Source of the DNA: a virus
Taxonomy: Duplodnaviria > Heunggongvirae > Uroviricota > Caudoviricetes
Direction: 5' to 3' (one strand)
Virus record (IMG/VR): IMGVR_UViG_2690316184_000003
Length of the DNA stretch: 5,505 nucleotides
A program made the translations under genes and the position numbers. Below the pieces are notes generated by a model. The model was given only the letters and a program-made list of their open reading frames with translations, was not told the origin of the DNA and did not search any database. Below are positions 1,961 through 5,505 of the stretch, piece after piece (positions within the stretch are counted from its first letter, which is position 1; each line of letters starts with the position of its first letter).

Positions 1961-3022
1961 ATGAAAAACACTGTAAAAATAAACAGTATTGATTTAATCA
2001 ACGCTGATTGCCTGCATTTTATTCAGTCCCTGCCTGATGATTCCATTGACCTGATTGTTACCGATCCGCCTTACTTCAAGGTGAAACCCAACGGTTGGGA
2101 CAATCAGTGGAAAGGGGACGAAGATTACCTTAAGTGGCTGGACCACTGTCTGGCCCAGTTCTGGCGGGTGTTGAAACCTGCCGGAAGCCTTTACCTGTTC
2201 TGTGGGCATCGCCTGGCATCTGATATTGAGATCATGATGCGTGAACGTTTCAACGTGCTTAACCATATCATCTGGGCGAAGCCGTCCGGACGTTGGAATG
2301 GGTGTAATAAAGAAAGTCTACGCGCATATTTTCCTGCCACAGAGCGCGTTCTGTTTGCTGAACATTACCGGGGGCCATATCGCGGCAAAAGTGACGGCTA
2401 TGTGGCAAAAGAAAGGGAACTCAAACAGCACATAATGGCACCGCTGATATCGTATTTCAGGGATGCTCGTGCCGAACTGGGTATAACGGCAAAACAAATT
2501 GCCGAAGCCACAGGTAAGAAAAATATGGTTTCCCACTGGTTTGGTGCCAGTCAGTGGCAGTTGCCGAATGAGGCTGACTACCGGAAGTTACAGGCACTGT
2601 TTTCCCGTATAGCGGCAGAGAAGTTTCAGGAACAACAACTGGAACAACCACACCACCAGTTGGTGGCATCTTATGATTCACTGAATCGCAAATATTCTGA
2701 ATTGCTGGATGAGTTTAAATCTCTCCGGCGCTATTTCTCCGTATCAGTCTCCGTGCCTTATACCGATGTCTGGATGCATAAACCCGTTCAGTTCTACCCG
2801 GGTAAACATCCGTGTGAGAAACCGGCGGATATGCTCAGGCAAATAATCAATGCCAGTAGTCGACCCGGCGATCTGGTTGCTGATTTCTTTATGGGATCCG
2901 GTTCCACAATAAAAGCAGCAATGGCGCTGGGGCGTCGGGCGTTAGGTGTTGAGCTTGAGACAGAGCGGTTTAATCAGACCATCCAGGAAATCAGTATGTT
3001 ATCAGCAAATACAATTTTGTGA
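1961..3022 (+). CDS. DNA methyltransferase, beta-class amino-MTase (N6-adenine or N4-cytosine), apparently orphan
   Basis: 353-aa ORF. Catalytic motif IV DPPY (IVTDPPYF) lies near the N-terminus and the AdoMet motif I FxGxG (DFFMGSGST) near the C-terminus, the circular permutation typical of beta-class MTases (PF01555-like). The middle region has an HTH-like segment (GITAKQIAEATGKK). No restriction endonuclease partner is recognisable in the window. Confidence 0.9.
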   Translation: MKNTVKINSIDLINADCLHFIQSLPDDSIDLIVTDPPYFKVKPNGWDNQWKGDEDYLKWLDHCLAQFWRVLKPAGSLYLFCGHRLASDIEIMMRERFNVLNHIIWAKPSGRWNGCNKESLRAYFPATERVLFAEHYRGPYRGKSDGYVAKERELKQHIMAPLISYFRDARAELGITAKQIAEATGKKNMVSHWFGASQWQLPNEADYRKLQALFSRIAAEKFQEQQLEQPHHQLVASYDSLNRKYSELLDEFKSLRRYFSVSVSVPYTDVWMHKPVQFYPGKHPCEKPADMLRQIINASSRPGDLVADFFMGSGSTIKAAMALGRRALGVELETERFNQTIQEISMLSANTIL

Positions 3023-3264
3023 ATTAATTCAATTATTGGTGGGATGTCTGTGCCGTATAATGATTACAGATACAGTGTATCCTGCAATGCAGCAGGGCTG
3101 ATGTGGTGGGTTGTACATAGCCTGCAAAGGATTGGCTTCATTAATTCATCGTTGATACAAGCGAGTCACGGTTGACCACGCCAACGGCTCATCGGTAAAA
3201 ATCCGACACCGTGTCTTCTTAACTCACTTATTGTTTCCACCCATGTTTTTGGATACCTGCTGTA

Positions 3265-3303
3265 GCTGTCAGATTAGCGCGATAATCTGACAGCTTTTTT
3301 TTT
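3265..3303 (+). terminator. Strong rho-independent terminator
   Basis: Perfect 11-bp stem GCTGTCAGATT (3265-3275) / AATCTGACAGC (3284-3294), 8-nt loop, followed by nine T (3295-3303). Confidence 0.85.
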
Positions 3304-3591
3304 ACAACGAATCCTTCTGATCTGCTTTTGCGGGGCTTTTTTGTATCCGCTCCATGCCCGGCGTATAAGCGGAGGTTGGTCAGTTTTCTAAAAATTGAAA
3401 TACCTCACAATTCAGCCAGTTAATGGTTGTTTGTCTGGCGAAGAGTTTGTAAATAAAAAAACGCATGGTGAATCCCCCTAAGCGGCGGGGCGAATCAGCA
3501 GTCAGTTCTGGGATAATCGCGGGTTCGTATGCTGATGCCGGACTCACCGGGAGGCACCCGGCACCATGCATCATGGTCATCCCCTTGTATG

Positions 3592-3618
3592 ATACCCCTC
3601 TCCGGAGGGGTATTTTTT
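3592..3618 (+). terminator. Rho-independent terminator ending the structured element at 3463-3590
   Basis: Stem ATACCCCTC (3592-3600) / GAGGGGTAT (3605-3613), loop tccg, then TTTTT (to 3618). Confidence 0.7.
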
Positions 3619-3622
3619 GGAT

Positions 3623-3650
3623 AAAAAAGCCCGCGCTGGGAGGCACGGGC
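3623..3650 (-). terminator. Minus-strand intrinsic terminator, convergent with the 3592-3618 terminator
   Basis: On the minus strand: GCCCGUG / CGCGGGC stem (7 bp with one G-U pair), 8-nt loop, followed by UUUUUU (plus-strand A-run 3623-3628). Confidence 0.5.
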
Positions 3651-3885
3651 GGCAAGGAATAAAACGTGAAGAAATTTTCACAGGCGCATAATAATCCGAT
3701 GTTGCCAGATTTTGCAACTGCATCATCTGGTTATTATGTGAGCTGGAAAATCAGATTCTGTATGGACTGAAGCCATGCTGTTATTTAGGGCCAAAGAGCT
3801 GGCTTTTTCCCGCCTTCTCTCCAGTAACGATTAATGAGAAAAGAATGAAATGCTTTTCCTGGGGAGGAGGGCAGTAGAAAAAAGA

Positions 3886-3943
3886 ACCCGCCAGCAAAAA
3901 TATGGGGGATGAACAGCTTTTGCTACTCAGGTTGCTGGCGGGT
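3886..3943. repeat. Perfect 12-bp inverted repeat separated by 34 nt
   Basis: AACCCGCCAGCAA (3886-3897) pairs exactly with TTGCTGGCGGGT (3932-3943). On the minus strand the hairpin is followed by a T-rich tract (plus-strand agaaaaaag, 3876-3884). Confidence 0.6.
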
Positions 3944-4051
3944 ATGGTTCTTCATGAAATAAGAATGTTACGCGGTATTTTTAATGAAAATGATAATTAT
4001 TGTCAATTGGTTGTGCGTATTTTTTCATACATGACTGGTAAAGGTGATTCA

Positions 4052-4083
4052 GGCCATCAGAGTTTTGCTGATGGCCTTTTTTC
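4052..4083 (+). terminator. Rho-independent terminator immediately upstream of the holin gene
   Basis: Perfect 9-bp stem GGCCATCAG (4052-4060) / CTGATGGCC (4068-4076), 7-nt loop, followed by TTTTTTcttt (4077-4086). Confidence 0.8.
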
Positions 4084-4115
4084 TTTCCGGTAGCACAGGT
4101 CTGTTGGGGCGGGAT

Positions 4116-4331
4116 ATGTATCAGATGGAAAAAATATCAACAGGCATTGCCTACGGCACCTCCGCAGGCAGTGCTGGCTACTGGTTTTTACAATGGCTTG
4201 ATCAGGTTAGTCCGTCTCAGTGGGCTGCGATTGGTGTACTGGGAAGTCTGGTTCTGGGCTTTCTGACTTATCTGACGAATCTGTACTTCAAAATCAGAGA
4301 AGACAGAAGAAAGGCTGCGAGAGGAGAGTAA
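4116..4331 (+). CDS. S: Class II holin (phage 21 S-like pinholin) with dual start (Met1 antiholin / Met4 holin)
   Basis: The translation [71 protein letters not shown] (71 aa) closely matches the S21 holin as I recall it. Two in-frame ATGs at 4116 and 4125 give the 71/68 dual-start arrangement. Two hydrophobic segments and a charged C-terminus. The track ORF from 4044 is a GTG extension that runs through the upstream terminator hairpin and is unlikely to be real. Confidence 0.85.
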
Positions 4332-5023: not shown

Positions 5024-5505
5024 ATGAACGCAAAAATCAGATACAGCCTGTCGGCTACTGTACTAGTGCTGATTGGTGCAGGCGCGTCTGCTCCTCAAAT
5101 ACTTGACCAGTTTCTGGACGAAAAAGAAGGTAACCACACAACGGCATACCGTGATGGTTCCGGCATCTGGACCATCTGTCGGGGTGCCACGATGGTGGAT
5201 GGAAAACCCGTTTTTCCCGGTATGAAACTGTCGAAGGAAAAATGCGACCAGGTTAACGCCATCGAACGTGATAAGGCGCTGGCATGGGTGGAACGTAATA
5301 TTAAAGTACCACTGACCGAACCACAAAAAGCGGGTATCGCGTCATTTTGCCCCTATAACATTGGCCCCGGTAAGTGTTTCCCGTCGACGTTTTATAAGCG
5401 GCTTAATGCCGGTGATCGTAAAGGTGCCTGTGAGTCGATTCGCTGGTGCACATCAAAGCAGTCTGTCAGTCAGTGCGTGAAGCCACCACCGCCTCCGGCG
5501 TGGAT
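5024..5505 (+). CDS. R: Endolysin, GH24 (T4/P22-type) lysozyme with N-terminal hydrophobic SAR/signal-like segment; 3' partial (runs off the window)
   Basis: Translated by hand: MNAKIRYSLSATVLVLIGAGASAPQILDQFLDEKEGNHTTAYRDGSGIWTICRGATMVDGKPV...VPLTEPQKAGIASFCPYNIGPGKCF.... It shows the E...D...T catalytic pattern and overall similarity to P22 gp19-type lysozymes as I recall them. The hydrophobic N-terminus fits a SAR endolysin paired with a pinholin. No stop before 5505, which is why it is missing from the ORF track. Confidence 0.85.
   Translation, partial: MNAKIRYSLSATVLVLIGAGASAPQILDQFLDEKEGNHTTAYRDGSGIWTICRGATMVDGKPVFPGMKLSKEKCDQVNAIERDKALAWVERNIKVPLTEPQKAGIASFCPYNIGPGKCFPSTFYKRLNAGDRKGACESIRWCTSKQSVSQCVKPPPPPAW

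Follow-up and report, generated by a model that had tools for sequence, protein, structure and literature searches.

A probable small-RNA gene island in the late operon of an Escherichia coli lambdoid prophage

What does a lambdoid prophage keep in 1.1 kb of late-operon DNA that encodes no protein? The question is raised by the virus record IMGVR_UViG_2690316184_000003 (Caudoviricetes), of which we analysed a stretch of 5,505 nucleotides (nt), called the window below; in it, positions 3023-4115 separate a DNA methyltransferase gene from a holin gene. A sequence-only reading had described this region as poor in open reading frames (ORFs) and dense in hairpins, and had suggested that it yields short, independently transcribed RNAs. 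We conclude, with a probability of roughly 80%, that 3023-4115 is a small-RNA gene island of an E. coli lambdoid prophage late operon. Its proposed core is an STnc100-family small RNA (sRNA) gene on the + strand (about 3463-3620), lying tail to tail with a PapR/EcOnc42-family sRNA gene on the - strand (about 3681-3623). The flanks would comprise a diverged STnc100-like unit, the relic of a tRNA cassette, a holin-proximal - strand candidate and a terminator, T4.

The four terminators named by the sequence-only reading are all present and rank 1 to 4 among the terminator-like sites of the whole window. Three lie on the + strand, at 3264-3304 (13-bp stem and T8), 3591-3618 (10-bp stem and a T-run) and 4051-4083 (10-bp stem and T5), and one on the - strand, at 3650-3623 (8-bp stem with 7 GC pairs, and T6). 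Altogether 3023-4115 holds 8 terminator-like sites, against 1.3 +/- 1.1 expected from dinucleotide shuffles. The promoter-like hexamers were found as two pairs, both on the - strand and both conserved in relatives. The region contains neither stx nor a credible protein gene, its longest ORFs having 91, 65 and 63 amino acids; a Pfam scan returned no match for the 91- and 63-residue ORFs, and ARAGORN found no tRNA or tmRNA in the window. An Rfam search across the region gave one match above threshold, STnc100, and for other families only sub-threshold noise, with no AsxR, AgvB, Esr41 or IsrK.

This Rfam match (RF02076) spans 3434-3622 with 114.5 bits against a gathering score of 47 (E = 2.3e-25) and covers model positions 1-206 of 206; the gene was placed at 3463..3620 (+), closed by terminator T2 (3591-3618). 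For comparison we collected 55 distinct 215-nt stretches from related loci, starting at the conserved 5' motif, and derived a consensus fold with RNAalifold from 14 diverse members, including the window copy and PasD2. The fold consists of a closing helix, three internal helices and the terminator, and 8 of its 33 pairs show compensatory changes on both sides across the 14 members. All of these elements are present in the window, namely the closing helix GCAUGGUG/CACCAUGC, the 5' CCCCU/GGGG hairpin, the GGGUUC/GAACUC helix, the CCGGG hairpin and the terminator, the single flaw lying in the 5' hairpin, where a U.C mismatch replaces the pair that closes the loop. The unit folds with a minimum free energy of -67.2 kcal/mol (z = -2.25). 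Inspection by eye and position-wise family comparison located a promoter-like site at 3427..3455 (+; TTGTTT, 17 nt, TAAATA). The mapped start of PasD2 reads GCAUGGUG... (PMC8550237 table S6), and by analogy the window RNA would start at G3463, end near 3620 and measure about 158 nt.

The STnc100 family is found directly after stx2B, overlapping the Hfq-bound EcOnc27/sRNA103 (PMC12370729, PMC12711010), and is related to PasD1 and PasD2 of enteropathogenic E. coli (EPEC) (bioRxiv 10.64898/2026.05.13.724894); these relatives, EcOnc27/sRNA103 and PasD, are transcribed, Hfq-associated small RNAs (PMC4104026, PMC8550237). The window copy resembles STnc100/EcOnc27/sRNA103 in matching the full model at more than twice the gathering score, in having the same helices and in occupying the same genomic slot. 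However, its identity to the common variants is no more than about 72-82%, and its central helix, its pre-terminator linker (CAUCCCCUUGUAUGAU) and its terminator sequence are its own. The PasD seed GUGAGU, which precedes the terminator, is absent from the window copy, and the alignment groups this copy with canonical STnc100. Because of its own central helix, linker and terminator and the missing PasD seed, its targets are probably different. Some related prophages carry two or three STnc100 genes in tandem (locus L077, 7246-7950; L102, 12653 and 13121; L016, 3339 and 3822), which share a common 5' domain and differ in linker and terminator, suggesting that seed/terminator modules are shuffled.

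The - strand gene belongs to a second named family. PapR is a 179-nt RNA of uropathogenic E. coli (UPEC) UTI89, whose sequence we identified through the published cloning, knock-out and primer-extension primers, and its nt 99-178 match the window at 66 of 80 positions (83%, E = 6e-18). The published primers map onto an EcOnc42-type RNA convergent with an STnc100 copy, and the knock-out primer JMJ755 spans both terminators, that of PapR and that of STnc100. The 3' 70-80 nt of the window gene also align with E2348C_1409.E2348C_1408.IGR, an EPEC candidate from RIL-seq (ligation and sequencing of interacting RNAs) that is listed as homologous to EcOnc08/21/42, with the Sp15 copy 3' of stx1B, and with the PP6 copy of E2348/69. 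Since the PapR primers map onto this RNA, PapR, EcOnc42 and the EPEC candidate form one family.

The window member is a short form of about 59 nt at 3623..3681 (-). It combines a hairpin at the 5' end with a single-stranded, U-rich seed AUUCCUUGCCGCCCG and terminator 3650-3623, and its fold has a z of -4.96; a C-to-U change in the terminator stem leads to a G.U pair on the - strand only. It shares with PapR (Khandige et al. 2015; equal to EcOnc42/21/08) the 3' 80 nt, including the internal promoter-like TATTAT, the U-rich linker, the seed and the terminator, as well as the convergent STnc100 copy and the complementarity to papI nt 75-105; it differs in a 7-nt linker deletion and in its predicted length. 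We took the potential to pair with papI mRNA, about 74-96 nt into the ORF, as a mark of the family and examined it with a seed-restricted test, because whole-molecule duplexfold allowed giant loops and was uninformative. In silico, the duplex with papI nt 75-105 reached -33.3 kcal/mol (UTI89 type: -32.5), a value that 2 among 500 shuffled sequences attained as well. Upstream of window position 3693 (- strand) no similarity to PapR was found. Inside the methyltransferase gene, a 23-nt stretch at 2572-2594 (GGCTGACTACCGGAAGTTACAGG) resembles the PapR 5' end (20/23, E = 0.003), probably by chance.

The promoter-like site of the PapR-like RNA, at 3688..3717 (-; TTGCAA, 18 nt, TATTAT), has a predicted start at 3681. 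Of 30 distinct variants, 29 keep its -10 hexamer TATTAT; the -35 hexamer reads TTGCGC or TTGCAA, and the spacing is always 18 nt. It aligns with the AsxR promoter of Sakai prophage Sp5 (-10 TAAAAT); the primary 5' end of AsxR was mapped by rapid amplification of cDNA ends (PMC4104026), and the Rfam AsxR match at L010 6630-6682 puts that end about 7 nt downstream of TAAAAT. Judged from the sequence, the promoter predicts a 59-nt RNA running from 3681 to 3623, which would fall in the size class of AsxR and AgvB, a class that we defined by an RNA of 51-60 nt, a promoter at the homologous position and convergence with an STnc100-type RNA. The AsxR and AgvB models (RF02703, RF02702), which represent a conserved 3' domain of about 42 nt, gave no match at E<=1 in the whole window or at E<=10 over 3615-4115, and the same search detected Sakai AsxR at 88 bits. 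L025 and L028 have the short PapR-like form as well, bearing substitutions of its own, and there it stands behind a protein-coding moron instead of STnc100.

A second inverted repeat, imperfect and 32 nt long (3674-3705 / 3720-3751), is centred on the palindromic -35 hexamer TTGCAA (3712-3717). It creates a + strand mirror of the TTGCAA/TATTAT promoter, which has a spacing of only 14 nt and was judged nonfunctional. In Sp5 a + strand hairpin overlaps the AsxR promoter, and the repeat is probably its degenerate counterpart.

Taken as a pair, the STnc100 (+) and PapR-like (-) genes end tail to tail with terminators 2-5 nt apart; of about 110 viral contigs with the PapR-type RNA, nearly all also have STnc100. 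At least 8 Sakai prophages have convergent pairs of Hfq-binding sRNAs in the interval from the late promoter PR' to the lysis genes (PMC4104026, PMC7873438), this "convergent sRNA dyad at moron site" being the layout of Tree et al. 2014 (PMC4104026), and for both families, STnc100/EcOnc27/sRNA103 and PapR/EcOnc42, expression and Hfq binding have been shown by others. In Sp5, Rfam locates STnc100 75 nt downstream of stx2B; AsxR converges on it at a distance of 2 nt. By its arrangement, the window appears to be a further instance of the dyad, in a toxin-free prophage from extraintestinal pathogenic E. coli (ExPEC). Like the published dyads (EcOnc27/AsxR of Sp5, EcOnc42 of Sp15, EcOnc06/AgvB), it follows a moron or methylase and precedes the lysis genes in a late operon under Q control, its + strand STnc100-type RNA and short - strand RNA end back to back, and its - strand promoter aligns with that of AsxR. 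Unlike them, it lies in a prophage of ExPEC and avian pathogenic E. coli (APEC) type without stx or tRNAs, its - strand partner is of the PapR/EcOnc42 rather than the AsxR/AgvB type, and extra units flank it.

The region also recalls the lambda PR'-tR' 6S RNA and StxS, which are short terminated RNAs of a Q-controlled late operon whose terminators are overridden by Q-modified polymerase. Those RNAs, however, start at PR' directly after Q, and their equivalent here (about 782-890) lies outside the region, whereas the window RNAs have their own predicted promoters, two of them on the opposite strand. A candidate PR' reads TTGCAT (782-787), 17 nt, TAAGAT (805-810) and is followed by a terminator at 856-875; by analogy it would yield a short PR' RNA like 6S RNA or StxS.

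Comparison with related loci further shows how the island is put together. The sequence-only reading had placed the region where Stx phages carry tRNA genes and stx, and relatives bear this out: L011 and L016, of the same family, carry tRNA clusters directly after a homologous methyltransferase, and Sp5 has the same RNA pair directly after stx2B. Its suggestion of insulated moron units that yield short independent RNAs is supported by homology, two of the terminators closing genes of the STnc100 and PapR/EcOnc42 families. The STnc100 helices, the PapR-like promoter and terminator, and T4 are kept in related loci. In L014 the cassette 3215-4115, including terminator T1, sits behind an unrelated upstream gene, and in L011 four tRNAs take the place of 3023-3720, with 3737-4113 and the holin kept. 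Conservation is uneven, since block 3876-4115 is kept at 87-92% identity and the adjacent 3721-3875 at only 79-88%. In E2348/69 PP6 (L002 2121-2297), ISEc13 interrupts the STnc100 copy convergent with the EPEC PapR-type RNA, the 5' end lying beyond the element (L002 578), so that the dyad is half-disrupted in this strain.

Between the core pair and the holin lies an unnamed candidate sRNA at 3878..3971 (-). The long inverted repeat of the sequence-only reading, which we recovered as two 12-nt arms (3886-3897 / 3932-3943) of 100% complementarity 34 nt apart, would form its 12-bp outer stem, enclosing an 8-bp hairpin and followed by U6, and the fold of about 3971-3878 has a z of -6.2 on the - strand. 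Its promoter-like site at 3977..4006 (-; TTGACA, 17 or 18 nt, TAAAAA or AAAAAT) is the best of the window, with 10 of 12 consensus matches. Across 9 distinct variants (88-100% identity) both hexamers are invariant, and changes fall on 4 of 17 spacer, 7 of 10 discriminator and 2 of 24 stem positions. In 40 of the 51 loci that could be assessed (58 loci, less 7 with under 400 bases of flank), the candidate lies 150-200 nt upstream of a P21-type holin and diverges from it.

Of 5426 complete E. coli genomes, 1428 (26%) contain block 3860-4090, which is never annotated there; about 639-641 of its places are on plasmids. On ColV-type plasmids it stands beside Rz remnants and iss, and in islands beside the pap operon. 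Copies of 3719-4086 with about 85% identity, lacking holin and lysozyme, were seen in L007 4001-4359 (pAPEC2908) and in L008 and L012 (ATCC 25922 and THO-008 islands); they are followed by an IS200-type STnc490 element and Rz remnants, and in the chromosomal islands they lie 1-2 kb from papI. A gapped-pattern scan of GTDB species genomes found the candidate only in E. coli and Shigella, and a literature search with its sequence strings found no paper. It resembles PasA/PasC of EPEC (EcOnc51/52) in its - strand position adjoining and diverging from the holin, its TTGACA promoter and its GCCAGC-containing terminator stem, but has no detectable homology to them. Membership was rejected on pairwise z-scores of 0.6-2.1 and on a PasA+PasC covariance model, which recovers PasA (107 bits) and PasC (100 bits) and had no match at E<=10 in window 3870-3975. 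PasB was set aside as well, its similarity being limited to a shared terminator in two loci.

The last element before the holin is T4 (4051..4083, +), 33 nt ahead of the start codon. It stays with the holin leader in loci whose upstream DNA is different (L115, H212), and we take it for the final insulator ahead of the holin gene. No + strand promoter was accepted from which a short RNA could run to 4083, the sole candidate being a poor -10 (TTTCAT) 17 nt after TTGTCA, and SgrS (RF00534) at 3986-4082 was rejected, having scored 24.8 bits against 37 with only the terminator-proximal part aligned.

At the other end of the island, a perfect -10 hexamer TATAAT at 3056..3061 (+), read from the sequence, precedes a candidate structured RNA domain, A1 (3068..3216, +). 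Four variants, with 72-76% identity outside it, all keep this hexamer; the promoter escaped the consensus scan because its -35 is poor. In A1 the arms AGAUACAGUG (5') and CACCGUGUCU (3') pair, and a UCGG-UAAAAAU-CCGA hairpin stands just before the latter; the conserved blocks and closing helix occur in the four variants, the window helix having one mismatch. Against the STnc100 model, Rfam scored 3048-3255 at 17.6 bits, below the threshold of 47, along model positions 1-206 (E = 0.06-0.11 in small searches), and A1 is possibly a diverged STnc100-like paralogue. A mosaic junction at 3214/3215 is followed by terminator T1 (3264..3304, +; fold of 3215-3304 with z = -5.1), which probably ends the A1 transcript and any methyltransferase read-through and would complete an STnc100-like gene of about 236 nt. 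Downstream, 3321..3367 (+) is a 47-nt relic of the sequence that trails a tRNA-Ile/Arg/Arg cluster in related prophages, with a weak terminator-like hairpin at 3321-3334. Matches of 44 nt at about 91% identity occur in about 126 E. coli genomes and in phages, and in L016 the relic lies 20 nt after the last tRNA-Arg; it is all that remains of a tRNA/stx moron cassette in the region.

The ORF list and the Pfam scan identify the whole window as the late-regulatory and lysis region of a lambdoid prophage. The Q antiterminator (PF03589) extends to 750 and two small ORFs separate it from the N6/N4 DNA methyltransferase (1961-3022); a bidirectional terminator lies at 1472-1487 after ORF 905-1435. The right boundary of the island is a class II (phage 21 type) holin gene (4116..4331, +; PF04971, 1.2e-35; annotated by RefSeq in IHE3034), after which come a DUF1327/YdfR protein and a lysozyme starting at 5024. 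Chromosomes of ExPEC, APEC and neonatal meningitis E. coli (NMEC), such as IHE3034, APEC O78 and PMV-1, match 3023-4115 at 100% identity, 123 of the 5426 complete genomes carry at least 80% of it, and in the strains with the identical region iss (a bor homologue) comes after the lysis genes. The window tracks the IHE3034-type prophage to 5448 and diverges at 5449-5505, the endolysin ORF passing at 5449 straight into lambda-Rz1-like sequence (..CTSKQSVSQCVKPPPPPAW). R is apparently fused to Rz/Rz1 by a deletion, so that the source prophage is probably lysis-defective.

According to the above-described layout, we propose that the moron slot between Q and the lysis genes would hold small self-contained units, each transcribed from a sigma-70-type promoter of its own and ended by its own intrinsic terminator. 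Transcripts from PR' would stop at the early terminators in the lysogen, and the sRNAs made from their own promoters may act in trans on host mRNAs through Hfq-assisted base pairing, by analogy with their relatives; the PapR-like RNA would retain the papI-pairing seed. Five strong + strand terminators stand between Q and the holin, and they would keep the sRNA promoters and PR' from reaching the holin. Upon induction, Q-modified RNA polymerase would read through all five, and the lysis genes would be expressed. The override of terminators by Q-modified polymerase is established lambda biology. Among the relatives, PapR has been shown to repress papI, AsxR and AgvB to sponge FnrS and GcvB, and EcOnc27/sRNA103 to raise fimZ and espA transcripts. 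Our own analysis establishes family membership from sequence and structure, the conserved layout and the lack of coding genes; for the locus itself we infer transcription, 5' ends, Hfq dependence and targets.

It may be asked whether the hairpins are chiefly cis-acting insulators, whose terminators keep PR' and moron promoters off the holin and endolysin genes and make lysis strictly Q-dependent, the short RNAs being functionless by-products. The five + strand terminators and the persistence of T4 with the holin leader fit such a role, and StxS is a terminated late transcript that arises as a by-product of antitermination control (PMC7547250). However, the terminators 3650-3623 and 3949-3878 are wrongly oriented to protect the holin, the STnc100 body ahead of its terminator is a conserved, covarying structure, and trans targets have been demonstrated for PapR, AsxR and AgvB (PMC4546395, PMC4104026); insulation by itself fails to explain the two - strand units and the covarying body. 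We give the insulator-only account a sizeable minority chance, and since an insulating role is compatible with sRNA genes, it is a complement to the small-RNA island more than its rival. RefSeq offers another view, its annotation pipeline (PGAP) placing ORFs of 63 and 64 amino acids at 3902-4093 (+) and 3380-3574 (-) in some genomes, which would make the region a source of small proteins rather than RNAs. Both look spurious: neither has a Pfam match; the first passes through two hairpins and, in the approximately 85%-identical plasmid and island copies, has ATT in place of its ATG and a 1-nt indel that shifts the frame, with the DNA itself conserved; and the second is antisense to the full-length STnc100 match, like a comparable ORF annotation over PasD1 in EPEC that was noted as antisense (PMC8550237 table S6). 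Small proteins are in our judgment highly improbable.

The region might also be decaying leftover DNA, made of tRNA, toxin and moron relics and truncated sRNA genes that hitch-hike without purpose in a defective prophage. The 47-nt relic, the PapR-like gene without the PapR 5' 100 nt, the A1 domain far below the STnc100 threshold and with its closing-helix mismatch, the endolysin fusion at 5449 and the plasmid and island copies of 3719-4086 among insertion sequence elements all point this way. But the STnc100 copy is full length with all helices intact, the hexamers of both - strand units are invariant across diverged copies whose spacers and discriminators vary, the short PapR-like form recurs with substitutions of its own, and 3876-4115 is better conserved than the adjoining DNA. 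Wholesale decay seems unlikely to us; the tRNA relic and A1 may be decaying, and perhaps the truncated PapR-like gene too.

Several observations nevertheless weigh against the small-RNA island that we prefer. The 5' ends of all window RNAs are predicted ones, promoter-like hexamer pairs are not enriched (2 against 2.3 expected), and the STnc100 promoter is weak to moderate by consensus and went unflagged by the promoter scan. The PapR-like gene lacks the PapR 5' 100 nt, with the mapped start (GGGCUGAAGUCCGG...) and the promoter region dependent on the leucine-responsive regulatory protein (LRP), so that its expression and size may differ or it may be a truncated relic. In the holin-proximal candidate no pair changed on both sides among the 13 known variants, which are too similar to one another, and 2 of 3 stem substitutions suit + strand pairing better than - strand pairing. 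As 3023-4115 is 100% identical in about 120 genomes, this near-identity is uninformative on selection, and in an apparently lysis-defective source prophage parts of the region could be decaying.

The layout has already been described for Shiga-toxin and other lambdoid prophages, and both core families are already named; the window adds new family variants and an unannotated, widespread candidate. RefSeq annotation of this 1.1 kb is either missing or consists of spurious "hypothetical proteins" in more than 120 identical prophages; one STnc100-family and one PapR-family gene can now be entered there. The sRNA dyad of enterohemorrhagic E. coli (EHEC) at the moron site reaches toxin-free prophages of neonatal-meningitis and avian pathogenic E. 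coli, and PapR of UPEC, EcOnc42 of EHEC and the EPEC RIL-seq candidate are joined as one family with a conserved seed and terminator and exchangeable 5' parts. The unannotated block that travels with iss on ColV plasmids and lies beside pap islands is a candidate virulence-linked regulator. A bolder combination, which we put forward tentatively and rate as rather doubtful, is that block 3860-4090 encodes an undescribed Hfq-type sRNA (-, about 3971 to 3878, with a near-consensus promoter) and has reached ColV-type virulence plasmids and ExPEC pathogenicity islands together with iss and pap-linked islands, that the 59-nt PapR-like RNA is a functional short isoform repressing papI or sponging another sRNA, and that 3068-3304 is a second, highly diverged STnc100-type gene. 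If this were true, ExPEC would possess a set of sRNAs derived from prophages and linked to loci for serum resistance and fimbriae.

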